A stretch of DNA of 33,481 bases from an uncultured Bacilli bacterium (GTDB lineage Bacteria; Bacillota_I; Bacilli_A; ML615J-28; CAG-313), in the NCBI GenBank assembly GCA_904501965.1, contig CAJGCS010000001.1, positions 1-33,481 of the forward strand, written 5' to 3'. Positions within the stretch are counted from its first letter, which is position 1; every line of letters begins with the position of its first letter. The notes under the pieces are model-generated. The model had not been told where the DNA came from, did no database searches, and worked only from the letters and a program-made list of their open reading frames with translations. Position numbers and translations under genes: made by a program. Positions 534 through 23,765 of the stretch are shown one piece after another.

Positions 534-1898
534 ATGAAAAATGAAAGAAAACTATATGAATTATGTCCATCACAAAACGTTATTTTATTACAAACAAAAT
601 ATACACTTTGGCCAAAAGTAGTAAATATCGTTTTCTCAGCTTCAAAGAATGAAGAAATGGACTTTGCTTTATTAGATAAAGCATTTAATTTAGTCGTAAA
701 AAGAAACGACTGCTTACGAATTCGCTTTGTGAAACAGAATAAACAATTAATGCAATATTTCTTAGGCGAAGATGAAGTTACATTTGATAATATCGAACAC
801 CTAGAATTCCATACTGAAGAAGAACAAACTAAATTTATTGATAAAGTTCGTTCAAAAGCAATTAAGTATATGAAAGGTGAACAAATTATTCCTTATTTCA
901 TCAGAACTTTTGATGGAAAAAGTATGGTATTATTAAAAGTTAACCATATCGTACTTGATATTTATGGTATTGATTTTATTTTAAATGATCTATTCAAAGT
1001 ATATGATTGTTTAGTAGAAGGTAAAGAATTACCTGAAGCTCCAGGAAAATATGAAGAAGTTGTTATTGAAGACTTAAAGAGATTCCATAATGAATTTAGT
1101 TATAATGATTGTAAGGAATTTTTCCAAAATTATTTTGCAACTCATGAAGAACCATATTATGCTGGTATTGCAGGTGATAATGATCCAATTTGGGTAAAAC
1201 AAGTTAACAAAAACAAACGTGCTCAAAAGATGTTCTTTATTAACAATGATACAGTTGGCTATGAAAGAGAAATTTCTCCAGAAGTAGTTTTACCAGTATT
1301 AGATTTCTGTAAAGAATATAATTTATCTCCAACAACAGTATTCTTCTATGCATGTTCTTTAACTAGTGCGTTAATTAATAATAATACTACTACAATGTTA
1401 CCTTTAGAATTATGTAACTGTCGTGGTACAACACTTGAAAAAAATTGCGCAGGTTGTAAAGTACAAAGTGTAGGTAGTTTTACTGAAGTTGATTATGATA
1501 AATCATTTGTAGATAATATTCAAGCATTCTATGAAACACAAATGAAATTATATCGTAGATATTATTTCCCAGATGTTGATTTTGAAATGTTACTTCATAA
1601 AACATATCCATCTTCAATGCTTGAAACATATTATGGTATTGCATTCTCTTTTGTTCCATATATTAAGAGAAAAGATGTTGAATATTGCATTTACTCAAAT
1701 GGTAAAGGAGCTCTTCCTTGTTATCTAGTTTCTTTATTTGATGTTGAAACAAATGAAATTAGAATGGGTTATGATGTTCAAAGTAAGATTACAAAAGAAT
1801 CTGATGTTGATAGCTTCCATGCAAACTACATTGAAATCTTAAAACAAATTGTTGAAAATCCACAAAGACTTTGTAAAGAATTTAAAGTTAATAAATAA
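534..1898 (+). CDS. standalone condensation (C)-domain / CAT-fold acyltransferase-like protein
   Basis: 454-aa ORF with a GAGGG RBS. It carries a variant of the HHxxxDG active-site motif, NHIVLDIYG (about nt 947-973), at the usual ~135-aa distance from the N-terminus. The size is typical of a single C domain. No adenylation or carrier-protein domains are present nearby. Confidence 0.6.
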   Translation: MKNERKLYELCPSQNVILLQTKYTLWPKVVNIVFSASKNEEMDFALLDKAFNLVVKRNDCLRIRFVKQNKQLMQYFLGEDEVTFDNIEHLEFHTEEEQTKFIDKVRSKAIKYMKGEQIIPYFIRTFDGKSMVLLKVNHIVLDIYGIDFILNDLFKVYDCLVEGKELPEAPGKYEEVVIEDLKRFHNEFSYNDCKEFFQNYFATHEEPYYAGIAGDNDPIWVKQVNKNKRAQKMFFINNDTVGYEREISPEVVLPVLDFCKEYNLSPTTVFFYACSLTSALINNNTTTMLPLELCNCRGTTLEKNCAGCKVQSVGSFTEVDYDKSFVDNIQAFYETQMKLYRRYYFPDVDFEMLLHKTYPSSMLETYYGIAFSFVPYIKRKDVEYCIYSNGKGALPCYLVSLFDVETNEIRMGYDVQSKITKESDVDSFHANYIEILKQIVENPQRLCKEFKVNK

Positions 1899-2803: not shown

Positions 2804-3682
2804 TTATTTCTTTTTTAAATTTTCGATTTTCTTAAATAGTATTGCGACATCATGTTTGAATGATTTAAAATCAAATATTAAAGATAAACTAAAACAAAGT
2901 GGAGTAAGCACAGTATATGCCGGAACAATTAACCAAAACCATGGCCAATGTTTAAATTCACCCGCATGTTCTCCAACAGGAACAATCTTAAAGATGTTTG
3001 GACATAAATAAGAAAGTATATTTCCAATTGCTTTTGTTCCTGGATGTTCTCCAGGTCCCCAAATTAATGAAGTGTTCTTATAGTTCGGAAAGAAGAAATT
3101 ATCATCTCTTAAAGGAACAAAACCAACTTCACTTTGGAAAATTTGATTTATAATAATAAAGACTAGTACCGCAAGTAAAATTCCAGGAATCTTAATAGCG
3201 TTTTTATAACTAGGTTTGTGAAGTTTTAAAACAACCATTAGTAAAGGTACAATAAGTAAAATTGAATGATGAATATAGAATCTAATAATATCTAGTGTTT
3301 CTGCTTGCTGATTTATTTTTGCAAGTGGTTCCATTGGGTATATTAAAGATATTGCTCCACTTATTATTCCAATATAAAACATATAATCTTTCAAAGCTTT
3401 ATTTTTAGAAATAAAGATAAAAGGAAATAACAAAATGTTTGCTGCACAAATATTAATAAACCAAATATCACTATAAAGTCTATATGGATTGTTAGAATAA
3501 GGTGGGAAGAAACACTTTGCGAAGTGTAATATTAAAGCAAAAACTAAAATTGAAAATAAAACTATTTTCTTTGTTTTGTCTGATTTATTTCTTAATAAAA
3601 AATATAACCCAACAAATACTCCACCAGATAACAAAATCCAAAAGAAGTACCAAAAGTTAGGTGGACTAATACTAATGAACAT
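2804..3682 (-). CDS. polytopic integral membrane protein, paralogue of 1913..2788
   Basis: The track ORF runs to 3700 (MYEGWVM...). The internal ATG at 3682 (MFISISPP...) is preceded by GAGGGA 6 nt upstream, whereas the ATG at 3700 has only a distant AGGA. I therefore prefer 3682 as the start. The protein has multiple TM helices and the tail KKIENLKKK. Confidence 0.65.
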   Translation of the reverse strand: MFISISPPNFWYFFWILLSGGVFVGLYFLLRNKSDKTKKIVLFSILVFALILHFAKCFFPPYSNNPYRLYSDIWFINICAANILLFPFIFISKNKALKDYMFYIGIISGAISLIYPMEPLAKINQQAETLDIIRFYIHHSILLIVPLLMVVLKLHKPSYKNAIKIPGILLAVLVFIIINQIFQSEVGFVPLRDDNFFFPNYKNTSLIWGPGEHPGTKAIGNILSYLCPNIFKIVPVGEHAGEFKHWPWFWLIVPAYTVLTPLCFSLSLIFDFKSFKHDVAILFKKIENLKKK

Positions 3683-3815
3683 AACCCATCCCTCATACAT
3701 AGTTGTCTATAATTCCTAAACATATTATCATAAAATACAAATTTCTTCAAGATTGATTTTTCTAAGTAGCATATTAAAAGGTGTAAGATGCATATGATTA
3801 TATGGTGATGTTTTA

Positions 3816-9769: not shown

Positions 9770-10456
9770 ATGGCAAAAACAATAATGGTAATCGGTGGAC
9801 ACATTGGCGATGCAGAATTAACTGCTGGTGCACTTATGGCAAGTAATGCAGTAGATGGCGGTAAAAATATTACCGTTGCATTAACTGCTGGTGAAAGAGG
9901 AAATCCTGCTCACTTAACACCACAAGAATATAGAGTACAAAAAATTCAAGAAGCAGAAAACTTTGCTAAGTTAGTTAATGGCGAAGCTGTTGTTTTAGAA
10001 TATTGCGATGGTGAACTTCCTAATGATGAAAAAGTTAGAAGAGAAGTAGCTGAATTAATTGTTAAATATAAACCAAATTTAATTATTACACATTGGCGTA
10101 GTAGAATGCATAAAGATCACGATAGAACACATTACATTGTTCAAGATGCACAATTTATGGCAGGTGTAGTTGGTAATAGCGAAGGAAAAAGACATTATGC
10201 TCCAATTTACTTTGCAGAAAACTGGGAAGATGATCATGATTTTGAACCATATATTTATGTTGATGTTACAAAAGGATTTGATCTTTGGTGCAAAGCTCTT
10301 CATGAACATTGGTTTGTAATGAATAGTAAAGATTTCAAATATTATGATTATTATACATCTTTAGCAAGATGCAGAGGTGCTTTATGTAAGAAACAATATG
10401 CAGAATGTTTTAACATCCTTCCGCACCAAAAGAAGGTAATTAAAGATGAACTATAA
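9770..10456 (+). CDS. PIG-L/LmbE-family N-acetylglucosaminyl deacetylase
   Basis: The N-terminus VIGGHIGDAELTAG is a variant of the (A/P)HPDDxE zinc motif. HKDHDRTH supplies the HxxH zinc ligand block. The 228-aa size is typical of the family. Confidence 0.75.
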   Translation: MAKTIMVIGGHIGDAELTAGALMASNAVDGGKNITVALTAGERGNPAHLTPQEYRVQKIQEAENFAKLVNGEAVVLEYCDGELPNDEKVRREVAELIVKYKPNLIITHWRSRMHKDHDRTHYIVQDAQFMAGVVGNSEGKRHYAPIYFAENWEDDHDFEPYIYVDVTKGFDLWCKALHEHWFVMNSKDFKYYDYYTSLARCRGALCKKQYAECFNILPHQKKVIKDEL

Positions 10457-13025
10457 AATAAAAACACTAAAAGGCTTAATTATTTCTTTATCTATAATTT
10501 TAGTGTTTGTATTATCAACATTTGGAGTTGCATTTGCAGAAACTCAATATGTTAAAATATATGATAAAGAAGGTAATACAATTAAACACTATGGAACATA
10601 TAAAGAAGTTGAAATGCCTAGAAATTATTTAACTGCTGAATATGAAATGCGTGGTGTTTGGGTTGCAACTGTATATAACATTGCAATTAGTAAACAAGAA
10701 GGAACTACTCCTGCAGCTATTGAAAAGTATAAACAAGAATTTATCTCTATTTTAGATAGAATGGAAGAGTATAATATGAATACATTATACTTCCAAGTAA
10801 GACCTTCTAATGATGCATTCTATGAATCAGAACTTAATCCATGGAGTCAGTTCTTAGCCGGAGCAGGTGTAAATCCAGGATGGGATCCGCTTGAATGGAT
10901 GGTTACAGAAACTCATAAAAGAGGTTTTGTTTTCCAATGTTGGATGAATGCATTTAGAGTTACTGTTTATAGCGTTTTACCAGGAGAAGATAGTTTAGCT
11001 TCTGAATATACAAATAGTGAATTAATTGCATTCAAAAAAAATGCAATTGCTAAACTTGATGAAGGCAACTTTGCAAGAATTAATCCTGATTGCGTAGTAA
11101 TGGGTGAATCAGACACAAGATTAATTCTTAACCCAAGTGATCCAAGAGTTCAAGAATTTTTAGTCGCAACATGTAAAGAAATTATTGAAAATTATGATGT
11201 TGATGGCTTCCACTTTGATGACTATTTCTATTTATCAGGTGGCGGTGCTGCAAATAACTATAATGGTAACTTTGCAGGTGGCAAAAACTATGATGCAAGT
11301 TTAGTAGGTGAAAATACTTTAAATGACTTACCTTGCTATGAAGCTTATAAACAAGGTAAAGCTGAATATGCTCATTTAGAAAAAGGACTTAATCTTGGTG
11401 ATTTTAGACGTGCAAGTTTAAACCATATGATCAAATCAATTAGATTAATGGTTGATAAATATAATGAAGAACATAATGATGTAGTAGAATTTGGTGCAAA
11501 ACCAGCAGCTGTTTGGCGCAGTAATATTGAATATTGCCGTGAAAACGAATATCGTTGTGTAGAAAACGGTTCTAACACTCATGCTTCTGCATATAGTTCA
11601 TATAATGACTTATATGCTGATACTCTAACTTGGGTAAAAGAAGGTTGGGTAGATTATATGGCACCACAAGTTTATTATGGATTCTCAAGTACAGAAGCTC
11701 CATATGCAGATATCGTTATGTGGTGGGCAGAACAAATTGAACAAGTTAATGCTCAAAGAAGACTTGAAGGTAAAAAAGATATTAAACTTTATATTGCTCA
11801 TGGTATCTATAAATATAGAGATGACAAAAAACAATTTGCTCTTGCAAGTGAAGTGAAGAACCAATTATACTATAATCAAAAGTTTGACTCAATTGTAGGT
11901 TCTGCATTCTATTCATATGAAAACTTATATAAGTTTGTTGACAAAACTCATGAAAATGGTATGAAACTTGTTAAACAAACATGGTCTGAAAAAGTTATCC
12001 CAATTCCTGTTGGTGAAAATGATGCAAAAGGATTAATGGTAGAAGACATCAAAATTCGTAATGCTGTTGGATCTACATCATATTCATTAACATTTGATTT
12101 ATTAGAAAATGCTAATGTATATGCAGTATACAAAGTTAAAAAAGGTGAAACTCTTGACACAAGTGATGTTACAACACGTTCTATTGTTGAATTTGAAGGT
12201 TATCAAGAAAATAAGAGTTTAAGTATTAGTATTGATGATTATGATCCTGAGTATGATTATTACTTTACAGTATTCTCAAAAAGATATCACATGTCAGATG
12301 AGTTTATTAAACTTGACTTTAATTCATCAGTTGAATATACTCCATTAACTGTCCAAGATTCAATTAAACTTGAAAATGCATATTCACCTTCAACAAATGT
12401 TTCTTTCTCACTTGAATCAAAATATGAAGAAGCAAGAACACTTAATTATTCAGTATATGTTGAATATGATGGTGACGAAAGATTAATAGCATCTGGTATT
12501 GTTTTAAATGATGTTATAAATGTTTCATGGAAATCTTGGCCATTTGCATCAATGGAAAATAGAATTAAAGTTGTATATTCTGATGGCGTATTAACTGAAA
12601 CAGTTTATTCAAATTATTTTGATGTTGCCAATGTATTTAATATTACATATGATTTAAATGGAGTAGAAGCTACGCTTGATGCACCAAATGTCTATGTTGA
12701 AGGTAAAGGAATAGAAACTCTTCCAACTCCTACAGAGATTGTTCAAGTAGAAGGAAAGAAAATTACATTTGATGGTTGGTTAAATGAGGCTGGTCAAAAA
12801 GTTACTTCAATTGGTATTTATCAAACTGGCAATGTAAAACTTAAAGCTAACTGGATTATTGAAACAGTTGAAAATCCTAATCCAGAACCACAACCAAATC
12901 CACAACCAAATCCAAACCCACAACCAAATGGTGGATGCTCTTGCTCAAGTACAAGTGCTTCAGTTATTGTTTCTACACTTACTGCACTTTCTCTTGCGGT
13001 TTTGGTATTAAGAAAAAATAAATAA
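10446..13025 (+). CDS. secreted GHL10 (ex-DUF187, YngK-like) glycosidase-like protein A with beta-sandwich domains, a Listeria-Bacteroides (Flg_new) repeat, a Pro-rich linker and a GCSC C-terminal anchor
   Basis: Signal peptide ...FGVAFA/ETQ. GHL10 blocks are RGVWVATVYNI, FQVRPSNDAFYES..NPWS, PGWDPLEWM, DGFHFDDYFY and WVDYMAPQVYY. The Flg_new repeat ITYDLNG...ITFDGWLN...GNVKLKANW lies at about 12640-12855. The tail is PNPEPQPNPQPNPNPQPNGGCSCSS + TM + RKNK. The start overlaps the PIG-L gene by 11 nt. Confidence 0.85.
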   Translation: MNYKIKTLKGLIISLSIILVFVLSTFGVAFAETQYVKIYDKEGNTIKHYGTYKEVEMPRNYLTAEYEMRGVWVATVYNIAISKQEGTTPAAIEKYKQEFISILDRMEEYNMNTLYFQVRPSNDAFYESELNPWSQFLAGAGVNPGWDPLEWMVTETHKRGFVFQCWMNAFRVTVYSVLPGEDSLASEYTNSELIAFKKNAIAKLDEGNFARINPDCVVMGESDTRLILNPSDPRVQEFLVATCKEIIENYDVDGFHFDDYFYLSGGGAANNYNGNFAGGKNYDASLVGENTLNDLPCYEAYKQGKAEYAHLEKGLNLGDFRRASLNHMIKSIRLMVDKYNEEHNDVVEFGAKPAAVWRSNIEYCRENEYRCVENGSNTHASAYSSYNDLYADTLTWVKEGWVDYMAPQVYYGFSSTEAPYADIVMWWAEQIEQVNAQRRLEGKKDIKLYIAHGIYKYRDDKKQFALASEVKNQLYYNQKFDSIVGSAFYSYENLYKFVDKTHENGMKLVKQTWSEKVIPIPVGENDAKGLMVEDIKIRNAVGSTSYSLTFDLLENANVYAVYKVKKGETLDTSDVTTRSIVEFEGYQENKSLSISIDDYDPEYDYYFTVFSKRYHMSDEFIKLDFNSSVEYTPLTVQDSIKLENAYSPSTNVSFSLESKYEEARTLNYSVYVEYDGDERLIASGIVLNDVINVSWKSWPFASMENRIKVVYSDGVLTETVYSNYFDVANVFNITYDLNGVEATLDAPNVYVEGKGIETLPTPTEIVQVEGKKITFDGWLNEAGQKVTSIGIYQTGNVKLKANWIIETVENPNPEPQPNPQPNPNPQPNGGCSCSSTSASVIVSTLTALSLAVLVLRKNK
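12930..13022 (+). other. C-terminal sorting-signal-like module (GGCSCSS motif, 20-aa TM helix, RKNK tail)
   Basis: The translated tail is GGCSCSSTSASVIVSTLTALSLAVLVLRKNK, preceded by a (PNPQ)n linker. The architecture is tripartite, like sortase, exosortase or myxosortase substrates. A second copy sits at 16363..16458. Confidence 0.6.
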
Positions 13026-13139: not shown

Positions 13140-14039
13140 ATGAACAAAATATATGATACACATAGCGATATTTTTCATAATCTTTTTACAAGAAAAGATG
13201 AGGGATGCATAGATCCTTTTGAAAAATATCACTTAGAAAACTTAACAAAAGGAAATATCCAAGGTGGAATTTGGGTAGTTTACGGAGATAAAGATTTTGA
13301 TGTTTATCCTGCATATAAAAAAGCATTAGATGCTTTTGAACCTTATAAAGATAAATATGATGTTATCTATGGATTAGAAGGTTTAAGAAATGTGCATACA
13401 CTTGAAGATTTAAAGAAAATGTATAATTTAGGAATAAGACATGCTAGTCTTACTTGGAACGAGGAAAATCATTTAGCAACTGGTGTTGCAGGTCCTGCCG
13501 AAAGAGGATTAACTGATCTAGGAAAAGAATTTTTAGATTTCATGCAAGAAAATAAAATGATTATTGACGTTTCTCATTTAAATATAAAAAGTTTTTACGA
13601 TGTTTGTGAATATGTAAAAACACCAATTATTGCAAGTCATTCTAATGCATATACACTTTGTAATCATAGAAGAAATTTAAATGACGATCAATTACGAGTG
13701 CTAAAAGAAAAAGGCGGATATGTTGGGGTTGTTTCTGCAAGAAATTTTGTATCACCACAAAATGATAGAAAAACTGTAGCAGGACTTGTAGATCATATTG
13801 AATACATTGCCAATATTATCGGAATCGACCATGTAATGCTTGGCCTTGATATGATGGATTATTTAGATGATTTTAATGATCATAATTCAAACCTTGATGA
13901 TTTAGTAACACATGCCGATGCAAATAATGTTGTTACAGAAATGAGAAAACGAGGCTTTAAAGAAGAAGATATAAATAAAGTAACACATGAAAATTATTTT
14001 GAATTATTAAAGAAAGTAGGAGTTAAAAATGAAAAATAA
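13140..14039 (+). CDS. M19-family (renal-dipeptidase-like) dipeptidase, cytoplasmic
   Basis: N-terminal metal motif DTHSD, plus LTWNEENHLATG, IIDVSHLN and ASHSNA, which are the characteristic M19 amidohydrolase-fold blocks. No signal peptide is present. Confidence 0.8.
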   Translation: MNKIYDTHSDIFHNLFTRKDEGCIDPFEKYHLENLTKGNIQGGIWVVYGDKDFDVYPAYKKALDAFEPYKDKYDVIYGLEGLRNVHTLEDLKKMYNLGIRHASLTWNEENHLATGVAGPAERGLTDLGKEFLDFMQENKMIIDVSHLNIKSFYDVCEYVKTPIIASHSNAYTLCNHRRNLNDDQLRVLKEKGGYVGVVSARNFVSPQNDRKTVAGLVDHIEYIANIIGIDHVMLGLDMMDYLDDFNDHNSNLDDLVTHADANNVVTEMRKRGFKEEDINKVTHENYFELLKKVGVKNEK

Positions 14040-16461
14040 AATTATTAAAATACTATTATTTTTAGTACTTGGTGCTTTAATAACATTTGGATCTTATCAA
14101 AGTGCTAAGGCATGGAATGGTATTGCAACGCTTAAACCTTATACACCTGAGATGGTTGAAATGCGTGCAGTATGGGTTGCAACTGTTTCAAACATTGATT
14201 TTAGAAAACAAGATGGAACAAGCGAAGCTGCAATTAATGATTGGAAAGCTAGATATATAAAAGTTTTAGATAATGCACAAGAAAAAAATCTAAATACAAT
14301 TATTTTCCAAATTAGACCAAATAATGATGCATTCTATCCTTCTAGATATAATCCATGGAGTGAATATTTAGTTGGATATGGTGTTGATCCAGGATGGGAT
14401 CCTCTTGAATGGATGCTTGAAGTTACTCATGAACGTGGTATGGAATTCCATGCATGGCTTAATCCTTATCGTACTTCAACAGCTCATTTAACATTTGACT
14501 TTAAACAAAATGTTGCGGGGACAAATGGTGATTGTATTGTTGATTATGATGAAAAAGCACTTGATACATATAAAGAAACTTTCTTTGGTTCTTTAAAAAC
14601 AAAAGCTGAAGTAAATGGAAAAACTTATGATAATCCAATCTTTGGCGAAGACTTATTACATGATGTTGTACTTGGTGCTGAAGATAAATTTGTATTAAAT
14701 CCTGCATCTGAAAATGTATTAGATCATTTAAACAACACAATTACTGAAATTATTGAAAATTATGATGTTGATGGTATTCATTTTGATGACTACTTCTATC
14801 CAAACGATACAGTTTATAAAGGTGACAAAGCTGAACTAAAAGGCTATACTTTCTCAACAGAACCATATCGTGATATGGAAGATTATAAAGCTTACAAAGA
14901 AAAAGGTGGAAATTTATCAATTTATAATTGGCGCCGTGAAAATATTGATACATTAATTAAAAATTTAAGTGATATCATTCGTGATTTAAATAAAACAAAA
15001 GAAGTTAAATGTTCATTCGGCGTAAGCCCTTGTGCTAGATGGGCACCTAATGAAACTTGTACAGCTTTTGAACGTGGTGCTGAAGGCGGTATGGGCAATG
15101 ACTGTAATAACTATTATGCATATTCTGACCTTTTTGCTGATACAAGAAAATGGGCATTAGAAGAATGGATCGATTATATTGTTCCTCAATGTTATACAAA
15201 TCTTGATAGCGCATATGCAGATATCGTATCTTGGTGGAGTAAAACATTAAAAGATTCAAATACAAAACTATACATTGGCCAAGGTATTTATCAAATACCT
15301 ACTTGGAAAGATAAACTAGAAATGCTTTATCAAGTAAGATATAACCAAAGTTTCGGATATCGTGTAGATGGATATTATTTCTATAACTACACATCAGTTA
15401 TATCTGGCGATGGCGAAAAAGCAATGAATACATTATCAAATGGTATTTGGAAAAGAAATTCGCTAACTCCTACATATGCTGCTTATGAATATTCATCAGA
15501 AGTAAAAGGAAATATAGAAATTACCGATATTATTGAAACTGCAAATGATACTTTAATAATTAATTTTAAAGGCGTTGAAGGTGCTAAGGCATATATGTTA
15601 GTTGAATATGATGGAAATGTTGCGAACCTAGATTTATCTGGCAAAAAATATGTTAACTTAGTATATGGTTCTAATTTACAAATTGAATTTACTCCAGCTG
15701 AAGGAAAAGAATATGTTTTAGTTCCTATTGCAAAAGATAATTCAGTTAAAGAAAATTATACAAAAGTTGATTTAAATATGGTAATTAAAAATAATATCCC
15801 AGAAGTTACTCTTGAAGAAATTCCTTCAGAAGTACTAGCAAAAACTTCAATTGATGTTATTGCTAAGATTAAGGATACTGATAACACTGTATTTGATTAT
15901 GAAGTATTACTTGCGGTAGACTCTGATGAATTTACAAAAGTTGCATCAGGACAAGTTGAAGGTGATACAATAGTTTATACTTGGAAAACATATGTTATTG
16001 CACAGGAAAATATCAGATTTAAAGTAATTGTAAATGATGGAAAAGATAAAGCAGAAGCAATTAGTAATAGTTTCTCAGTTGTTGAAAAAGCTGCACCAGT
16101 AATTTGGAATATTACATATAATTTAGATGGTGGTACAATTACAAATGCTCCAACAACATATGAACAAGGAACTACAACTGCTCTTGTAAATCCGACTAAA
16201 GAAGGATATGAATTTACTGGTTGGTTATTAAATGGCGAGAAAGTAACTAGTATAAATAGCAATCAAACAGGAAATGTTACTCTTCTTGCAACATGGAAAG
16301 AAATAATTAAAGAAGAACCTGTTAATCCAAACCCACAACCACAACCAGGACAAAATGAAAATAAAGGATGTTCATGTGCAAGCTCTAGTGCAGAAATTGT
16401 TGTTTCTACACTTACTGCTGTTTCACTTGCAATTTTAATTTTAAGAAAAAACAGAGGTTAA
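14029..16461 (+). CDS. secreted GHL10 glycosidase-like protein B with the same Flg_new repeat, Pro-rich linker and GCSC C-terminal anchor
   Basis: Signal peptide ...YQSAKA/WNG. GHL10 blocks are RAVWVATVSNIDF, FQIRPNNDAFYPS..NPWS, PGWDPLEWM, HAWLNPYR, DGIHFDDYFYP and WIDYIVPQCY. The Flg_new repeat ITYNLDGG...GYEFTGWLLNG...GNVTLLATW lies at about 16110-16296. The tail is NPNPQPQPGQNENKGCSCASSSAEIVVSTLTAVSLAILILRKNRG. The start overlaps the dipeptidase gene by 11 nt and has an AGGAG RBS. Confidence 0.85.
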   Translation: MKNKIIKILLFLVLGALITFGSYQSAKAWNGIATLKPYTPEMVEMRAVWVATVSNIDFRKQDGTSEAAINDWKARYIKVLDNAQEKNLNTIIFQIRPNNDAFYPSRYNPWSEYLVGYGVDPGWDPLEWMLEVTHERGMEFHAWLNPYRTSTAHLTFDFKQNVAGTNGDCIVDYDEKALDTYKETFFGSLKTKAEVNGKTYDNPIFGEDLLHDVVLGAEDKFVLNPASENVLDHLNNTITEIIENYDVDGIHFDDYFYPNDTVYKGDKAELKGYTFSTEPYRDMEDYKAYKEKGGNLSIYNWRRENIDTLIKNLSDIIRDLNKTKEVKCSFGVSPCARWAPNETCTAFERGAEGGMGNDCNNYYAYSDLFADTRKWALEEWIDYIVPQCYTNLDSAYADIVSWWSKTLKDSNTKLYIGQGIYQIPTWKDKLEMLYQVRYNQSFGYRVDGYYFYNYTSVISGDGEKAMNTLSNGIWKRNSLTPTYAAYEYSSEVKGNIEITDIIETANDTLIINFKGVEGAKAYMLVEYDGNVANLDLSGKKYVNLVYGSNLQIEFTPAEGKEYVLVPIAKDNSVKENYTKVDLNMVIKNNIPEVTLEEIPSEVLAKTSIDVIAKIKDTDNTVFDYEVLLAVDSDEFTKVASGQVEGDTIVYTWKTYVIAQENIRFKVIVNDGKDKAEAISNSFSVVEKAAPVIWNITYNLDGGTITNAPTTYEQGTTTALVNPTKEGYEFTGWLLNGEKVTSINSNQTGNVTLLATWKEIIKEEPVNPNPQPQPGQNENKGCSCASSSAEIVVSTLTAVSLAILILRKNRG
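16363..16458 (+). other. second copy of the GCSC + TM + basic-tail C-terminal sorting-signal-like module
   Basis: The tail is KGCSCASSSAEIVVSTLTAVSLAILILRKNRG. It aligns position-for-position with 12930..13022: G-C-S-C-x-S-[ST]-S-A-x-[IV]-[IV]-V-S-T-L-T-A-[LV]-S-L-A-[VI]-L-[VI]-L-R-K-N. Confidence 0.6.
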
Positions 16462-16464
16462 AAA

Positions 16465-17730
16465 ATGAAACTAAATAAATTTACACAACCTGGAGAAAAT
16501 GTTAGATATTGGTATAATCAAGAAGAAATTGATATTCCAGAATTTAAATATAACGAAAGTGATTTAAGAGGAGCGTGGGTATCAAATGTTGCTAATATAG
16601 ATACACCAAGAGGATTACCTATAGAAGAATACAAAGCGGCTTTAGATAGAATTATTAATAAAGCGGCTGAATATAATATGAATGCTCTTATATTTCAAGT
16701 ACGTCCTACAAATGATGCTTATTACCCATCAAAACTAAATCCATGGTCTCGTTTTATTACAGGAACTGAAGGACAAGATCCAGGATTTGATGTTTTAGAA
16801 TATGTTATTAATGAAGCTGGCAAAAAAGGAATTCGCATTCATGCATGGATGAATCCTTATCGTGTTGGTATGAAACCTATTGATGAATATGGATCAAAAG
16901 AAGCTTACTTAGAAACTTTATCTGAAAACAACTGGGCTAGACTTCATCCAGAACATACTATTTTAGATGGATTAAATAAAGTTATTTTATCTCCATCTCA
17001 TCCTGAAGTTATTAAATTTGTTACTGACTCAATTATGGAAGTTGTAAATAATTATGATGTTGATGGCGTACATATTGATGACTACTTCTATCCTTATGCA
17101 AAAATAGAAGAAGAAAAAGAAATGGATGACTATTTAAAATATCGTGATACTCCTGAACAATCATTTGATGACTTTAGAAGATCTAATGTTGATAAGATGA
17201 TTAAGAGTATTCATGACGCTATGAAAAATTCGCTTAACAAAAAAGGAAATAAAATCGAATTTGGTATTAGCCCATTCGCGATATATCGTTCTAATATCCT
17301 AATTGATCCTGAAACAGGATGGGAAAAAGGTTCATTCCACTCTAAAGGAGTTCTACAATGTTATTTAGGTTTATATTCTGATATTTATCGTTGGATGAAA
17401 GAAGGATGGATTGACTATGTTGTTCCACAACTTTATTTCCCATTTGAAAGACCTGATGTTACATATCATGATTTAACTGCATGGTGGGCAGAAATTTCAA
17501 AAGAAACTGGCACAAAACTTTATACTGGTAATGCGATTTATCAAATGGGTACTCCTGAAAAGAAAGAATGGCAAAATCCAGATGAAATTAAAAATCAATT
17601 ATCTTTCAATTCAAATTTTGAAAATATTAAAGGTTCAATTTTCTTTACATTTAGAGATTTCTTTGAAGGAGAAAATGAAATTAAAAATAAAGCACTTGAG
17701 TCATTAAAGGCTCTTTGGTGCCAAAAATAG
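16465..17730 (+). CDS. GHL10 glycosidase-like protein C: catalytic domain only, no signal peptide (predicted cytoplasmic)
   Basis: RGAWVSNVANID, FQVRPTNDAYYPS..NPWS, HAWMNPYR, DGVHIDDYFYP and WIDYVVPQLY. The 421-aa protein has no N-terminal hydrophobic segment and no C-terminal accessory domains. It starts 4 nt after the previous stop. Confidence 0.8.
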   Translation: MKLNKFTQPGENVRYWYNQEEIDIPEFKYNESDLRGAWVSNVANIDTPRGLPIEEYKAALDRIINKAAEYNMNALIFQVRPTNDAYYPSKLNPWSRFITGTEGQDPGFDVLEYVINEAGKKGIRIHAWMNPYRVGMKPIDEYGSKEAYLETLSENNWARLHPEHTILDGLNKVILSPSHPEVIKFVTDSIMEVVNNYDVDGVHIDDYFYPYAKIEEEKEMDDYLKYRDTPEQSFDDFRRSNVDKMIKSIHDAMKNSLNKKGNKIEFGISPFAIYRSNILIDPETGWEKGSFHSKGVLQCYLGLYSDIYRWMKEGWIDYVVPQLYFPFERPDVTYHDLTAWWAEISKETGTKLYTGNAIYQMGTPEKKEWQNPDEIKNQLSFNSNFENIKGSIFFTFRDFFEGENEIKNKALESLKALWCQK

Positions 17731-17741
17731 TTAAAAATAAG

Positions 17742-17775
17742 TGGTGGTTTTTTATGAAAACCACCATTTTTATTT
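17742..17775 (+). terminator. strong rho-independent terminator
   Basis: TGGTGGTTTT (17742-17751), loop TTATG, then AAAACCACCA (17757-17766), followed by TTTTTATTTTC. Confidence 0.85.
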
Positions 17776-17855
17776 TCATTTTTAAGGTTAAATTTAAGTA
17801 TATTTTAGTTTTAGAAATTAATAAAAAAATACTTTTTGTTTTTAAGTTGTTTGAC

Positions 17856-17884
17856 TTGAATAAAAACGCTTTCTTTGGTATAAT
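17856..17884 (+). promoter_or_regulatory. sigma-A promoter with extended -10 for the GH20/ABC operon
   Basis: TTGAAT (17856-17861), a 17-nt spacer ending in TGg (17876-17878), then TATAAT (17879-17884). A GAGGTGA RBS precedes the ATG at 17936. The spacer contains a cre-like element, TAAAAACGCTTTCT (17861-17874). Confidence 0.65.
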
Positions 17885-17935
17885 AAGTATATCATAGACG
17901 AGTATGTCTTGAACGACTAGAAATGAGGTGACTTT

Positions 17936-19774
17936 ATGTTTAAATCTATTAAAATTGTACCCGTACCAAAAGTATTGAAACTAGAAGATGGGTATTTTAT
18001 TTTGCCTGAAATTGTAACAATTTCTTTCAAAAACTTTGTTAAAGATTTGAATATGTTAAGAGTAATAAAAGCGTTTAGTAAATATTTACCTTCATTCAAA
18101 GTTCAAAACGACTTGTCTTGTGTAAACTTTATTAAAACTGATATTTTAGATAGTGCTTATGAAATCAAAGTAGAAAAAGATCAAATCAATGTTTTTGCAA
18201 GTACTGCATCGGGAATGTTTTACGCTATTCAAACATTAAAACAAATTACTTTTGAAAATAAAGTTAAATGTTGTTATATTAGCGATTACCCTGATTTAAA
18301 AGTCAGAGGGGCAATGCTTGATATAAGTAGAAGTAAAGTTCCTAAGGTAGAAACAATCAAACAGATATTTGATATGCTTGCTTTTTTAAAGTTTAATCAT
18401 GTTGAGTTATATGTTGAAGGATTCTCATATGAATATAAGAGTTTTCCGAATGTCTTAAAAGATGGAAACTATTTAACTGTTGATGAATATAAACTTCTTG
18501 AATCGTATGCGTTTGAAAATTTCTTGGATTTTGTTCCAAATCAAAATGGCTTTGGCCATATGGGTGATTGGCTTCAACTAGATGAGTATAAAGATTTAGC
18601 TGAATGTGTTGACGGATTCACAATCTGGGGTGCATGGCGAAAGACAACAACTTTAAACCCACTTGATGATAGGTCAATTGAACATGTTAAAAAGATGTAT
18701 GCAGATATGATCCCTATTACTAAGTCAAATTATTTCCACATGAATTTTGATGAACCTTATGAGCTTGGACATGGTAAGTCAAAAGAAAAAACTGCTGAGT
18801 CTTCAGTAGAAGATGTATATATTGATTATTTGCATAAACTTTCAAGTGTTGTAAAAGGATATGGAAAAACACCACTTATTTGGGGTGATGTTGTAATTAA
18901 ACATCCCGAAGCAATTAAAAAAATTGATGAAGATATTATCCTAGTCGATTGGGGATACACAAAAACATATCCATTTGAACCACACGCAAAAATGCTTCAT
19001 GAACAAGAAAGAAAGTTCATGTTAGCAGGTGGAACAAGTACTTGGGGAGTTATTACTAGCAGATATCAAGATATGTATGAATCAATTAAAAACTCATGTG
19101 AAAATTCATTTAAATATGGTGGACTTGGTACAATAACTACCGATTGGGGAGATATTGGTCACTTACAATATTTACCTAATTCATATTTGGGATTTATTCA
19201 TGCATCGCTATTTAACTGGAATCAAAGTATTACAGAAGAAGAACATAACGATGTATTTGAAGATGCACTTGAAAAATTTGTTGGTGCTGATGTAAAGGAA
19301 GCTTTATTAAAACTTTCGAGATATACAGAGCTTGAAGGTGAATATAGAGACTATGGAAGTAGATTATTTTATCATATCCTTTGGGCAGAGCACGCACAAA
19401 ATAATGAATCACCACTTGATTTCTTCTTAACAAAGATGAAGAGCAACTATTTAAGTGTTGATTCTCAAAATAAAATATCAGATTTATTAAATGAAGTATA
19501 TGAAAAATTGTTTAAACTAGAAAGCCTTGAAGCAAAAGAATTATTAAATTCAATAAGCTTACTTAAGACTTTACTAGAAATTAATAAAAAGCTTCAAGCT
19601 TCTTGTACTGATTTTAGGAGTGAAATTAGTGCGCTAGATGACTTCGAAGCAAATCATCTTGCTCTTTGGAATAATCGTAACAAAGAAGCAGGTTTTAAAT
19701 TCTCTATTAATCGTATTAAATGGTTAAAACAAATATTAGTTCAAATAGAAATGAAGGGAGACAAAAATGAGTAG
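17936..19774 (+). CDS. GH20-family beta-N-acetylhexosaminidase-like protein, cytoplasmic
   Basis: GH20b N-domain pattern IVPVPKVLKLEDGYFIL...YEIKVEKDQINVFASTASGMFYAIQTLKQI. The catalytic domain has VRGAMLDISRSKVP (compare RGxMLDxxRHF) and a D-E pair in HMNFDEPYELG (compare H(I/L)GGDE). No signal peptide is present. Confidence 0.75.
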   Translation: MFKSIKIVPVPKVLKLEDGYFILPEIVTISFKNFVKDLNMLRVIKAFSKYLPSFKVQNDLSCVNFIKTDILDSAYEIKVEKDQINVFASTASGMFYAIQTLKQITFENKVKCCYISDYPDLKVRGAMLDISRSKVPKVETIKQIFDMLAFLKFNHVELYVEGFSYEYKSFPNVLKDGNYLTVDEYKLLESYAFENFLDFVPNQNGFGHMGDWLQLDEYKDLAECVDGFTIWGAWRKTTTLNPLDDRSIEHVKKMYADMIPITKSNYFHMNFDEPYELGHGKSKEKTAESSVEDVYIDYLHKLSSVVKGYGKTPLIWGDVVIKHPEAIKKIDEDIILVDWGYTKTYPFEPHAKMLHEQERKFMLAGGTSTWGVITSRYQDMYESIKNSCENSFKYGGLGTITTDWGDIGHLQYLPNSYLGFIHASLFNWNQSITEEEHNDVFEDALEKFVGADVKEALLKLSRYTELEGEYRDYGSRLFYHILWAEHAQNNESPLDFFLTKMKSNYLSVDSQNKISDLLNEVYEKLFKLESLEAKELLNSISLLKTLLEINKKLQASCTDFRSEISALDDFEANHLALWNNRNKEAGFKFSINRIKWLKQILVQIEMKGDKNE

Positions 19775-22700
19775 AACTAACTTAAAACACATTAAGCGTA
19801 TATTTACAATCGTTATGGTCGCATGTGCTGGTATCTTAGCCTTCTCTAACTTTAAAGGATTAAATAAAGTTGTTGCAGAAGAAAATCCAGAAATCAGTTT
19901 TGACGATGTATCAACATACGTAGATAATGAATATGATAGTTACTTAGAAGAACAATATTATAATCATGCTGAAAAACAAAAAGAATATACTATTGTTACT
20001 TCTGACATTAATCCTATTAATGCAAGTAACTATCATAAAGAAGGAACAGACATTTATTATAATGGTGATTTTGTTACAATTAAAGCAATTATAAGTAATG
20101 GTTATTTGTTCAAAGAAGAATCAACTTCATATAATTATGATACAGATATATATGAAGTTATTAATATCAATGATATTAATAAAGATGAAGGTGTTTCTTT
20201 AGATTTAATTGCAAGCAAAACAGTTATCTTAAAACAAGATAATGAAGATGGTTCTTCCACTTATTATCGTGAAAATGTAAAACTTGCAAATCTTCAAAAT
20301 GTTAAATTTGACGAAATGCTTCTTCAACAAGATGAAGGTAAAGTTACTTGGGAAGTAGTTGTTCCTAAAGCTGGTTTTTATAACTTAGCTATGAGTTATT
20401 ATCCAATTACAGGTAACAGTTCAAATATTGAAAGAAGTTTAGCAATTAACGGTAAGATTCCATTTGATGGTGCCGACACATTCTCATTCTCAAGAATTTG
20501 GCAAGACCGTGAAAGCTCTTATGAATTTGATGAAAATGGAAATAAAATTGGTTTAAAAACAGACGTTAAAGGAAATGATTTAAAACCTAAACAAGTTGAA
20601 AATCCATATTTAATTTCTTCATATTTTAGAGATGATATGGGATATGTAAATGAACCATATATGTTCTATTTTAATGAAGGTCCAAACTATATTACATTTG
20701 TTTCTGTAAAAGAACCAGTATTAATTGATCAACTAATTCTTGAAGGAAAAACAGTCTATTCAACATGGAAATTTGGAGATATAGATACTAACATTGAAGT
20801 TAACTACAATGATGAAGTTGTTTTCAAAGAAAATATTGTTGTAGAAAACGGACAAGAACGTAAAGTTACTTCATGGTGGATTAATGATAAAGATACAAAA
20901 ATCGAACACAAAGATGTTGAACCAGTTAAAGCATTAAAACAAAAAGGTATTTTAACTTATAAAGAGTATCTTGAATTGCATAAAGATAAAAAGAATGCAA
21001 CTAGTTCACCTGCAAGAATTGAAGCAGAAAATACATTCACAAAATCATCTCCAACACTTTACCCATCAACAGATAGATCAAGTTCACAAACTTATCCATT
21101 CTCATATACTACAACAAAACTTAATGTTATTGGTGGTACAAACTGGCAAGTTTTAGGTGACTGGATCACATGGCAAGTAACAGTTCCAGAAGATGGTTTC
21201 TACAACATTTCAATGCGTGCTAAACAAAATATGGTAAGAGGTATGTACTCAAGCCGTAAAGTTTACATCAATGATGAAATCTTATTCGATGAACTAAATG
21301 ACGTACAATTTAAATACAAAAACAATTGGCAAATCGTTACATTAGGTAATGATACAGAAGACTTCTTATTCTATTTAGAAGCAGGTCAAACTTATACAAT
21401 TAAAATGGAAGTTACTCTTGGACAATATGCACCACTTATCGAAGACTTACAAGTATGTATCGATGAATTAAGTGCAATTTATCGTATGATTATTGCTCAT
21501 ACAACTGTAACTCCTAAAGCTGGTACTGACTACCAACTTAAGAAAAATTTCCCATCACTTGAAAGTGATTTAATTAGAAACCGTGATGAGCTTGTAAGAA
21601 TTTCAAATGAAATTAGTGCAATCTCAGGTGGTAAGAGTGATAAAACAGGTGTAATTGATAACGTAGTTATTCAATTAAAAGACTTCATTAAAGACGTTGA
21701 AATTATTCCTACTCGTCTAAGTACATTTAGTAGTAACGTATCATCACTTGGTACATTACTTAATACATTAAGAGAGTTACCTTTACAACTTGACTGGGTT
21801 TGGGTTCATGCGCCTGAAGAAAAACTTCCAGCCGCAAATGAAAACTTCTTCAGAAAGATTTGGGACTCTGTTGTATCATTCGTTCTTTCATTCTTCCTTG
21901 ACTATTCTTCAATCAGCCAAACTGAAGAACAAGAAATAGTAGGTGAAGTAGTTGATATCGATGTTTGGATGACACTTGGTCGTGACCAAGCAAACGTTAT
22001 CAGAAGTTTGATTGATACGGACTTCGCGAAGAAAAATCCAAATATTCGCGTTGAATTAAAACTAACTGCGGGTGATGTATTATTAAAAGCAACACTTGCA
22101 GGTATTGGGCCAGATGTTGCCTTAAACGTTGATTCATCTTTACCAGTAAACTATGCATTAAGAAATGCAGTTATGGATTTATCAGATCGAATCTATGAAT
22201 ATGAATATAAATTAGAAACAAAAGATGGCAAACTTGCTCTTGGTAAGGATAAATTACCAATCCTTGCTAAAGATTCATCAGGTTCTTATACATATGCTAC
22301 TGATAGTTTAGGTAATAAGGTTATCCAAGCGACTTATTTACTTGCAGAAGATATGAAAAAATCTAGTGATTCATCTTTACCAACAGTTACTGATATTCAA
22401 TTATTTATGAATAGAACTTATCCAACATATTTTGATGCTTTAAGAGAAGAAATTAGATCAAAAGGTGTTGAAGAAAGTGCTGTTGAAAAAGAATTAATAG
22501 TTTTATTAAGCACTGAAGTTGTTATGAAAGCAGGTATGGCAATTCCAACATACTTATATGAATTATATCCTTCAATGTTTAGTGTATTAAGAAATATTGA
22601 CAATTCAAAAATTGTATCTAAACTTGTTAAAGATCAAGACTTCTTAATGATTCCTCAATATACTGATTTTAACTTCTGGGAACAAACAGGTGTTTATAAT

Positions 22701-23765
22701 CATGCAAATAATGTATATATGGAAAGTTCATTAAGACAATTCCAATTCCAATATGATTATAAAGATGGTACTTCAGGTTATGGAACTTATTCACTTCCTG
22801 AAAAACAAATCTTCTTAATGATGTTCGTTCGTGATGATATTATGAATGAACTTGGTTTAACTGAAATGATACCTGATACTTGGGATGAAATGATTGACTT
22901 AATTGCAGAATTACAAACTGACCAATTACAATTCTATCTACCAGTTAACTCTGAAGGTGCATCAGCACTTAACCCAATTTTCGTATCTAAGTTATATCAA
23001 CAAGGTGCAAGCATTTATGCATCTGATAATAGATCTACAGGTTTCAAGAGTGATGAAGCTATGAAAGCATTTGAAGAATGGACAGAATATTACACATTAT
23101 ATTCATTCCCATTAGCTGCTAACTTTACAAACCGTTTCCGTTCTGGTGAACAACCAATCGGTATTTCTTATTATGAATTATATAATACACTAAGTGTATT
23201 TGCTCCTGAGCTTAAAGGTCGTTGGTCATTCCATCAAATTCCTGGTACTCAAAAAGAAATTGAACTAGTAGATGATAATGGCAATAAGACTGGTGAAACA
23301 GTTGAATATATTGACAGAACAGCAGTAGCATCTGGTACAGGTTGTGTTATGATGAGACAATCTGGTGGTTCTGCAAAACATCAACAAGATTCTATGGACG
23401 CTGCTTGGGAATTTATGAAATGGTGGTCTTCAGCTGAAACACAAACTTCATTCGGTCGTGAAATGGAAGGTATCTTAGGTTCAGCAGCAAGACATACTAC
23501 TGCAAACGTTAAAGCATTACAACAACTTGCATGGAAGAAATCTGACCTTACTGTATTAATGCAACAATGGTCTTCAGTACATGAAATTCCACAAATCGCA
23601 GGTAGTTACATTACTGGTCGTGAAATCGAAAATGCATATCGTCAAGTAATTAATAACGGTTATAATCCTCGTGAAGTATTATATGAATATGCAGGAAAAA
23701 TTGATATTGAAATTGATAGAAAACGTCAAGAGTTTGGCTTAAAGATGTCAGGCGAAGGCAATTAA
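19767..23765 (+). CDS. giant (1332-aa) extracellular solute-binding protein with two N-terminal CBM6/35-like beta-sandwich modules fused to a family-1 sugar SBP
   Basis: N-terminal signal/anchor IFTIVMVACAGILAF. CBM-like module 1 lies at about 20300-20760 (KVTWEVVVPKAGFYNLAMSYYP...). CBM-like module 2 lies at about 21010-21425 (ARIEAENTFT...DWITWQVTVPEDGFYNISMRA...YTIKMEV). The SBP fold runs from about 21950 (VDIDVWMTLGRDQANVIRSLI..FAKKNPNIRVELK...GPDVALNV) to the end, with a large insert. A GGGAG RBS is present and the start overlaps the GH20 stop by 8 nt. Confidence 0.75.
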   Translation: MSRTNLKHIKRIFTIVMVACAGILAFSNFKGLNKVVAEENPEISFDDVSTYVDNEYDSYLEEQYYNHAEKQKEYTIVTSDINPINASNYHKEGTDIYYNGDFVTIKAIISNGYLFKEESTSYNYDTDIYEVININDINKDEGVSLDLIASKTVILKQDNEDGSSTYYRENVKLANLQNVKFDEMLLQQDEGKVTWEVVVPKAGFYNLAMSYYPITGNSSNIERSLAINGKIPFDGADTFSFSRIWQDRESSYEFDENGNKIGLKTDVKGNDLKPKQVENPYLISSYFRDDMGYVNEPYMFYFNEGPNYITFVSVKEPVLIDQLILEGKTVYSTWKFGDIDTNIEVNYNDEVVFKENIVVENGQERKVTSWWINDKDTKIEHKDVEPVKALKQKGILTYKEYLELHKDKKNATSSPARIEAENTFTKSSPTLYPSTDRSSSQTYPFSYTTTKLNVIGGTNWQVLGDWITWQVTVPEDGFYNISMRAKQNMVRGMYSSRKVYINDEILFDELNDVQFKYKNNWQIVTLGNDTEDFLFYLEAGQTYTIKMEVTLGQYAPLIEDLQVCIDELSAIYRMIIAHTTVTPKAGTDYQLKKNFPSLESDLIRNRDELVRISNEISAISGGKSDKTGVIDNVVIQLKDFIKDVEIIPTRLSTFSSNVSSLGTLLNTLRELPLQLDWVWVHAPEEKLPAANENFFRKIWDSVVSFVLSFFLDYSSISQTEEQEIVGEVVDIDVWMTLGRDQANVIRSLIDTDFAKKNPNIRVELKLTAGDVLLKATLAGIGPDVALNVDSSLPVNYALRNAVMDLSDRIYEYEYKLETKDGKLALGKDKLPILAKDSSGSYTYATDSLGNKVIQATYLLAEDMKKSSDSSLPTVTDIQLFMNRTYPTYFDALREEIRSKGVEESAVEKELIVLLSTEVVMKAGMAIPTYLYELYPSMFSVLRNIDNSKIVSKLVKDQDFLMIPQYTDFNFWEQTGVYNHANNVYMESSLRQFQFQYDYKDGTSGYGTYSLPEKQIFLMMFVRDDIMNELGLTEMIPDTWDEMIDLIAELQTDQLQFYLPVNSEGASALNPIFVSKLYQQGASIYASDNRSTGFKSDEAMKAFEEWTEYYTLYSFPLAANFTNRFRSGEQPIGISYYELYNTLSVFAPELKGRWSFHQIPGTQKEIELVDDNGNKTGETVEYIDRTAVASGTGCVMMRQSGGSAKHQQDSMDAAWEFMKWWSSAETQTSFGREMEGILGSAARHTTANVKALQQLAWKKSDLTVLMQQWSSVHEIPQIAGSYITGREIENAYRQVINNGYNPREVLYEYAGKIDIEIDRKRQEFGLKMSGEGN

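Follow-up and report, generated by a model that had tools for sequence, protein, structure and literature searches.

A portable cysteine-containing C-terminal tail on secreted enzymes of uncultured low-GC Bacilli, a candidate sorting and anchoring signal

Cysteine-type C-terminal signals, which include MYXO-, Synerg-, JDVT-, and CGP-CTERM, are so far known from Myxococcota, Synergistota, Proteobacteria, and archaea. They are presumed to work by lipidation of the Cys followed by cleavage by a CPBP-family protease, a chemistry that to our knowledge is still unproven. For MYXO-CTERM, cleavage requires the Cys and a CPBP-family intramembrane protease, and prior lipidation of the Cys has been proposed (PMC11980579; bioRxiv 10.1101/2023.06.07.544157). 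Here, we describe a 33,481-nucleotide (nt) stretch of DNA from an uncultured Bacilli bacterium (contig CAJGCS010000001.1, referred to in its entirety as the window), in which two GHL10-family glycosidases end in a tail of comparable design. We lean, if only slightly, toward the reading that this tail is a dedicated, portable C-terminal signal, tripartite and with a Cys, for sorting/anchoring of the secreted nutrient-scavenging enzymes of uncultured low-GC Bacilli. A full-text literature search returned no account of such a signal in Bacillota, and, as judged from the profile searches given below, the signal is described by no Pfam or NCBIfam model.

At the extreme C-terminus of the tailed proteins, a linker and a [K/G]-G-C motif are followed by a short spacer rich in Ser and Thr, a hydrophobic core of ~16 residues, and, last, an R/K-K-K cluster. 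The first of the two tailed genes, both of which lie on the plus strand, spans 10446–13025 in the list of open reading frames (ORFs) and encodes an 859-residue protein (copy 1) that Pfam assigns to GHL10 (PF02638, 9.4e-46) with a Flg_new repeat; it begins with a Sec-type signal peptide, MNYKIKTLKGLIISLSIILVFVLSTFGVAFA (10446–10538). Its tail occupies positions 12861–13022, which translate exactly as the original prediction had it, ETVENPNPEPQPNPQPNPNPQPNGGCSCSSTSASVIVSTLTALSLAVLVLRKNK, and is followed by a TAA stop codon at 13023–13025. Within this tail, a Pro/Asn/Gln-rich linker, ENPNPEPQPNPQPNPNPQPN (12870–12929), leads into the signature motif GGCSC (12930–12944), the second Cys of which (12942–12944) coincides with the family's invariant Cys in the alignment behind A5, a tail profile described below. 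The Ser/Thr-rich spacer SSTSAS and the hydrophobic core VIVSTLTALSLAVLVL come next (12945–13010; predicted transmembrane (TM) helix, Kyte–Doolittle value KD(17) = 2.36). The core is 16 residues long and contains an S-L pair that does not vary within the close clade (S26 and L27 in A5), and the basic cluster RKNK (13011–13022), predicted to lie on the cytoplasmic side, closes the protein.

The second gene (14029–16461, copy 2, 810 residues; Pfam GHL10 6.1e-55, Flg_new 4.6e-11) bears the same type of tail at 16312–16458, in which the linker EEPVNPNPQPQPGQNE, an N, KGCSC, ASSSAE, the core IVVSTLTAVSLAILIL (KD(17) = 2.26), and RKNRG follow one another; this tail scores 60.0 bits against the A5 profile. 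The C-terminus of copy 2 reads ...EEPVNPNPQPQPGQNENKGCSCASSSAEIVVSTLTAVSLAILILRKNRG, or, over a longer stretch, ...NKGCSCASSSAEIVVSTLTAVSLAILILRKNRG. Neither tail contains an LPXTG-type pentapeptide, as had been noted from the sequence at the outset. No Cys-type tail was found on the other ORFs of the window, and the third GHL10 paralogue (16465–17730) has neither a signal peptide nor a tail. Copies 1 and 2 are 36% identical over the whole protein; 22 of their last 32 residues are identical, and 10 of these 22 are specified by different codons, which argues for conservation at the protein level rather than recent gene conversion.

Unrelated families of secreted enzymes, at least six in number, carry the tail. 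The A5 profile, built from 18 tails of 36 residues, was searched exhaustively against 1.84 billion (1.84e9) representative proteins and retrieved 36 proteins at E ≤ 1e-3 and 7 at E ≤ 1e-10 (best E-value 2.6e-13); in 36 of 36 proteins, the match ends at the C-terminus or one residue short of it. By Pfam, the matches include six NAGPA phosphodiester glycosidases, a calcineurin-like/purple-acid phosphatase (Metallophos) with Flg_new repeats (P0140), a 968-residue Ig-like surface protein (P0141), a 780-residue protein with no family assignment (P0155), and the GHL10 proteins P0130 and P0005. With the tails removed and the bodies compared, these groups have at most Flg_new-type repeats in common, and there is a further small family (P0147 and P0153). 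A degenerate DNA-pattern scan of metagenome contigs added many further tailed metallophosphatases as well as a family that joins Endonuclease_1 (Endonuclease I) to Big_2. A signal-peptide-like N-terminus is present in 271 of the 276 full-length tailed proteins. A narrow DNA pattern run over the genome collection gave 3 real loci out of 18, indicating that GTDB species representatives include very little of the tail-bearing clade. A word-indexed search with the tail alone came back empty and is uninformative, since a local hmmsearch control predicted E = 1e-30 for the window protein; the index fails on short tails.

The window has a G+C content of ~30%, at which Lys, Asn, Ile, and Ser are frequent residues, and a hydrophobic C-terminus followed by lysines could in an AT-rich genome be a chance or low-complexity resemblance; indeed, our DNA-pattern scans gave many chance matches. 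These were cleanly separable because they lay off ORF ends and were non-hydrophobic. When A5 was applied to six-frame ORFs, true tails scored ≥36 bits and noise ≤15 bits. Together with the E-values and the strictly terminal position of the A5 matches, which refute it, this leaves the chance explanation with a negligible probability.

The Cys is conserved among both the GHL10 and the NAGPA homologues. A profile made from the two window proteins collected 2678 GHL10 homologues, and among the best 120, whose C-termini were assessed, 119 have a C-terminal helix. A Cys lies 24–36 residues from the end in 112 of these 119, usually preceded by Gly, in motif variants such as KKGCKK, SGCKK, GCNCKK, SSCNMG, and others. 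The original prediction had named a conserved double Cys as the motif. Alignment of close relatives upholds this for the second Cys of GCSC, which is the conserved one, but not for the first, an optional residue 2–3 positions upstream; in the majority of relatives, there is one Cys (KKGCKK) or the spacing differs (CxxC). In NAGPA homologues, all 81 distinct C-termini that passed a filter for a TM helix and a basic cluster have a Cys 26–31 residues from the end (mode 27), and of the remaining 9 of 90, five have, on visual inspection, both the Cys and a helix, and the other four are tail-less fragments. A position profile anchored on the Cys was made from 126 distinct tails, the commonest class and one selected for its Cys-to-basic-cluster spacing. 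In this class, to which both window copies belong, the R/K-K-K/R cluster begins exactly 23 residues past the Cys, positions 9, 10, and 21–23 are hydrophobic in 89–98%, and position 17 is Ser or Thr in 81%.

Relatives of the window carry several such tails each. A metagenome-assembled genome (MAG) named 'Bacilli bacterium' (JAZNQD01) encodes at least four tailed proteins, with two GHL10 on one contig and two NAGPA on another. Locus L009, which is collinear with the 3′ end of the window at 74–78% nucleotide identity, continues just downstream of the equivalent of the window end with two tailed NAGPA, GH3, NagB, and a tailed 956-residue surface protein, for a total of three tailed proteins from two families; L030, from a more distant lineage, repeats this arrangement with another version of the tail. 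A tailed metallophosphatase gene is situated at a locus unrelated to this cluster, between leuS and rplT. The possibility, raised in the original prediction, that only the two paralogues carry the tail is contradicted by these genomes, and its comparison of the tail to a tripartite sorting-signal module is borne out: the tail forms the very end of proteins with a signal peptide, presents motif, helix, and basic cluster in that order, retains its Cys in 112 of 119 helix-bearing GHL10 homologues and in all recognized NAGPA tails, and recurs on unrelated families with several copies per genome or contig.

Unrelated families within a lineage share that lineage's own version, or dialect, of the tail, helix residues included. 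The NAGPA-like fragment P0127 bears the version found in the window (GCSCSSTSA with a PNP linker), ...PNPEPQPTPTPDNTNKGCSCSSTSAEIIISTLSALSIAILVLRKKK. The tails of GHL10 P0022, GSQCNMGANIKSLFTLTTIMGLMVVALRKKR, and NAGPA P0185, GNQCKMGANIKTLFTLTTMLGLMVVALRKKR, are 84% identical over 31 residues, and the corresponding tail identities are 77% for GHL10 P0020 and NAGPA P0253, 76% for GHL10 P0021 and NAGPA P0182, and 73% for GHL10 P0085 and NAGPA P0263. In the clade of the window, the intrahelical S-L residues are invariant across families.

In its design, the tail comes closest to MYXO-CTERM (TIGR03901/TIGR03382; myxosortase MrtX/MrtC/MrtP, CPBP family). Both are tripartite C-terminal elements of surface proteins that bear signal peptides; both have a Gly-Cys with an invariant Cys that is sometimes doubled (GCGC in MYXO-CTERM, GCSC or GCxxC here), a TM helix, and a basic cluster; and both occur on many unrelated families, several per genome. 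They differ in that the hosts of the tail are low-GC Bacilli or Mollicutes-labelled MAGs rather than Myxococcota, in that the basic cluster is Lys-rich here and Arg-rich in MYXO-CTERM, in that the Cys here lies ~6 residues from the hydrophobic core, nearer than in TraA, and in that no myxosortase-like gene was found in the window or the related loci. The Synerg-CTERM/MrtS, JDVT-CTERM/MrtJ, and CGP-CTERM/MrtA systems resemble the window-type tail in being lineage-restricted, but they belong to other taxa, Synerg- and JDVT-CTERM give negligible profile matches, and the conserved two-gene neighborhood that JDVT-CTERM forms with its enzyme has no counterpart around the tailed genes. With LPXTG/sortase A, the tail shares a Bacillota host, the succession of signal peptide, linker, motif, helix, and basic tail, and a cargo of surface enzymes, whereas its signature is G-C in place of an LPXTG- or NPXTG-like motif, and attachment to peptidoglycan is not implied. 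N-terminal lipoproteins (lipobox, Lgt/Lsp) likewise have a Gly-preceded Cys at the outer membrane boundary beside a cleavable helix, and the mechanism proposed below would be their mirror image; in the window-type tail, however, the helix comes after the Cys, in the opposite orientation, and Lys-Lys-Gly rather than a hydrophobic lipobox precedes it. In L003 (GCA_965314795.1), a 1030-residue GH18/EndoS-like enzyme with an N-terminal lipobox (…LSLVSVTSC; 15534–18626) adjoins a tailed GHL10, so both modes of anchoring coexist in these lineages.

The tails were further compared with curated C-terminal sorting-domain models in a hidden Markov model (HMM) scan of NCBIfam release 20, with thresholds of E ≤ 10 for the window tails and E ≤ 1 for 106 distinct related tails. 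This check, which the original prediction had proposed, returned sub-threshold matches only, and no model fits the window tails. MYXO-CTERM TIGR03901 matches copy 1 with 13.6, 14.4, and 15.4 bits for different fragments, below its cut-off of 20, and no match to the tail of copy 2 was reported; GC_trans_RRR reaches 10.6 bits (cut-off 15.85) and JDVT-CTERM (NF033191) 7 bits (cut-off 27), and the window tails also match, again sub-threshold, the C-terminal portions of two proteins that depend on myxosortase. The likeness to the Cys-type MYXO-CTERM that had been suggested from the sequence is thus the closest resemblance obtained, albeit a weak one; the tail has the invariant signature Cys of that family, scores below its 20-bit cut-off, and is carried by hosts outside the Myxococcota. 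Among the 106 related tails, 28 families were matched at E ≤ 1, none of them by more than 16 tails. The matches scatter over generic helix-plus-basic models (LPXTG_anchor, Loki-CTERM, and Heimdall-CTERM; 10–16 tails each, E ~0.002–0.02) and a few Cys-type models. The LPXTG model TIGR01167 matches 16 tails (best E 0.0022) over the helix and basic part alone, Synerg-CTERM (TIGR04564) matches 2 (best E 0.035) with none reported for the window tails, and GlyGly-CTERM matches 1 (E 0.022). Within the tails of the window proteins and of the A5 matches there is no Pfam domain.

One might still suppose that the tail is a diverged and poorly scored member of a curated signal, be it Firmicu-CTERM, LPXTG/sortase, GlyGly-CTERM/rhombosortase, or MYXO-CTERM proper, as the sub-threshold scores just listed and the Gly-Gly that precedes the Cys in copy 1 would allow. 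Firmicu-CTERM (TIGR04145), which the original prediction named tentatively as a candidate identity, is absent from the matches of the window tails (E ≤ 10) and from the 25 families listed for the 106 related tails (E ≤ 1), and the likeness to it goes no further than the notion of a C-terminal domain restricted to Firmicutes. Given, in addition, the missing LPXTG-like motif, the confinement of LPXTG_anchor matches to the helix and basic part, scores below every cut-off for the window tails, and hosts that are neither Myxococcota nor Vibrio-like diderms, we consider this explanation improbable. By sequence, the tail appears to be like MYXO-, Synerg-, and JDVT-CTERM in design and a member of no curated family.

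A more serious competitor is an ordinary, unprocessed type-I TM anchor, in which the juxtamembrane Cys is kept for S-acylation, disulfide formation, or dimerization and which has spread by duplication or exon-like shuffling with no sorting enzyme involved; we regard this as quite plausible, though well short of an even chance. Several observations weigh on its side and against a dedicated signal. Seven of the 119 helix-bearing GHL10 homologues, all distant, have a Cys-less helix, and these are Haloplasma contractile and distinct ~1300-residue architectures, so that some homologues function without the Cys. The tails of the GHL10 paralogues in L001 are strongly diverged, with little in common beyond the Cys, the helix, and RKK, which means that the constraint on the helix sequence is not universal. 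The mean conservation of the tail (0.46) exceeds that of the N-terminal signal peptide (0.24), the linker (0.20, the lowest), and the flanking domains (0.27–0.44), which favors a dedicated signal, but it is only average beside that of the whole protein (0.45). Shared dialects could also result if a convenient anchor module recombined within the genome, which would be eased by the presence of many tailed genes in one large cluster. Furthermore, no candidate enzyme appears in any neighborhood examined. The window contains no sortase, CPBP, rhomboid, or exosortase domains; the Pfam-annotated neighborhoods of the syntenic loci L001–L007 show the same cluster alone; CPBP, sortase, rhomboid, exosortase, Lgt, and Lsp domains are absent around L008–L011, L030–L033, and L154; and no EExxxR motif was found in multi-TM ORFs across ~306 kb of related loci. 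Genes for housekeeping sorting enzymes such as myxosortase do not lie beside those of their substrates (Haft, bioRxiv 10.1101/2023.06.07.544157), which makes the lack of a neighboring candidate uninformative.

Against the plain anchor stands, in the first place, the presence of the Cys in essentially all of >200 distinct tails from families with nothing else in common. The fixed spacing of 23 residues in the commonest class, with the caveat that these tails were selected for it, the intrahelical residues that unrelated families of one lineage conserve in common, the tailed metallophosphatase at an unrelated genomic site, and the synonymous divergence between copies 1 and 2, which speaks against recent conversion, point the same way. 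The window also offers a comparator in the RCC1-like protein (26190–29495, plus strand; 1101 residues, RCC1/NHL repeats, signal peptide), whose C-terminal TM anchor, …NFSWIMTAAVIIAVGAAGWFVYKTIKAKQAKKIKVQGGSK (29373–29495, plus strand), is plain and Cys-less, gives no A5-profile match, and has a longer stretch of cytoplasmic residues behind it. L009 and L030 retain this anchor beside Cys-tailed genes, and its maintenance alongside them in the same cluster indicates that the Cys tail is a distinct class rather than the default anchor of the organism.

If the tail is a dedicated signal, a mechanism can be outlined. Following Sec export, the helix would keep the enzyme in the membrane with the N-terminus outside and the C-terminus inside, a topology for which the case is moderately strong, and the Cys would then be located just outside the outer leaflet, about six residues beyond the hydrophobic core. 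The Cys motif and the helix would next be recognized by a shared membrane factor. Conserved intrahelical residues are typical of signals that are read by intramembrane proteases (Haft, bioRxiv 10.1101/2023.06.07.544157), and the shared dialects together with the conserved residues of the helix suggest that, within each lineage, the tails are read by one membrane partner. If MYXO-CTERM and myxosortase are taken as the model, the Cys may then be lipid-modified and the helix removed by an intramembrane protease, which would leave the enzyme at the cell surface by way of a C-terminal lipid; the case for these lipidation and cleavage steps is weak, because no candidate enzyme was found in the loci examined. 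Somewhat short of an even prospect, in our estimation, is the larger proposal that this represents the first Cys-dependent C-terminal sorting in Bacillota, a "mirror-image lipoprotein" pathway for exported hydrolases of uncultured gut Bacilli and Mollicutes-like bacteria in which Gly-Cys lipidation is coupled to release of the helix by an intramembrane enzyme.

Should the signal be related to those already described, Cys-type C-terminal sorting biology would be extended to Bacillota, and if the hosts lack an outer membrane, as their phylum suggests, lipidation followed by cleavage would become testable without the type II secretion step of MYXO-CTERM. It would also show how a little-known, uncultured gut lineage displays its scavenging glycosidases, phosphodiesterases, phosphatases, and nucleases. 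With a curated HMM for the tail, hundreds of 'hypothetical' surface proteins would be better annotated and phylogenetic profiling for the enzyme would become feasible.

Membrane proteins encoded near tailed genes were considered as processing candidates. The original prediction, which saw no candidate enzyme in the window, was right with respect to sortase, CPBP, and rhomboid proteins but overlooked two tandem genes for TMEM164-family (TIGR02206-related) integral-membrane putative acyltransferases (1913–2788 and 2804–3700, both on the minus strand). As a Cys lipid transferase, these were rejected: the upstream flanks that can be seen in L001 and L003 lack them, and hence nothing ties them to the tail. 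The recurrent membrane neighbors DUF624/YesL-like, Yip1, DUF1189, and a 238-residue six-TM protein were likewise set aside, as they are without a protease signature and are explained by synteny with transporters or leuS. The most consistent membrane neighbor of a tailed gene is the DUF624 (YesL-like) gene, with six to seven TM segments, which is found directly upstream of the first tailed NAGPA in L009 (9217–10029), L030 (9306–10004), and L043 (7945–8643) and overlaps it in L009 and L030; it probably encodes a transporter accessory. The gene for the 238-residue protein, very AT-rich, lies repeatedly in the vicinity of the tailed metallophosphatase within one lineage (L086 6478–7191, minus strand; L110 5287–6000; L151 307–1020), and its product has no Pfam or NCBIfam match.

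The host records are named 'Bacilli bacterium', 'Mollicutes bacterium', or Anaeroplasma bactoclasticum MAGs, and several are from gut samples. A wall-less host that would for this reason have no sortase was entertained and is not supported, since the window encodes a MurC-like ligase (271 bits, below the equivalog cut-off of 335) and a PBP4B-like protein; we accordingly do not claim that the host is wall-less. Both belong to a strongly syntenic cluster at 3816–33481 of the window (plus strand), which is also present in L001, L003–L006, L009, and L030. It runs from the MurC-like ligase through LacI, tyrS, the PBP4B-like serine hydrolase, a double GNAT, and a PIG-L deacetylase to the three GHL10, an M19 dipeptidase, GH20, a 1332-residue solute-binding protein, two permeases, the RCC1-like protein, Yip1, and DUF5696, and its downstream extension in relatives comprises two NAGPA genes, GH3, and NagB. 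The cluster looks like a scavenging locus for cell-wall sugar (peptidoglycan or amino sugar). DigH, a characterized member of GHL10, acts in daughter-cell separation of E. coli with other peptidoglycan hydrolases (PMC12288456). The two tailed GHL10 genes overlap the ends of their upstream genes by 11 nt each (10446–10456, PIG-L; 14029–14039, M19 dipeptidase), and the identical overlaps in L004 suggest translational coupling.

Elsewhere in the window, positions 534–1898 (plus strand) encode a stand-alone condensation-domain protein of the nonribosomal peptide synthetase type (PF00668, 9.4e-24), which no adenylation or carrier domains adjoin in the window. The solute-binding protein of the cluster (19767–23765, plus strand), of the ATP-binding cassette type, is unusually large at 1332 residues; its SBP_bac_8 match is confined to the C-terminal quarter, and Pfam matches nothing in the N-terminal ~1000 residues. 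In all lineages seen, the housekeeping gene tyrS is embedded in the cluster.

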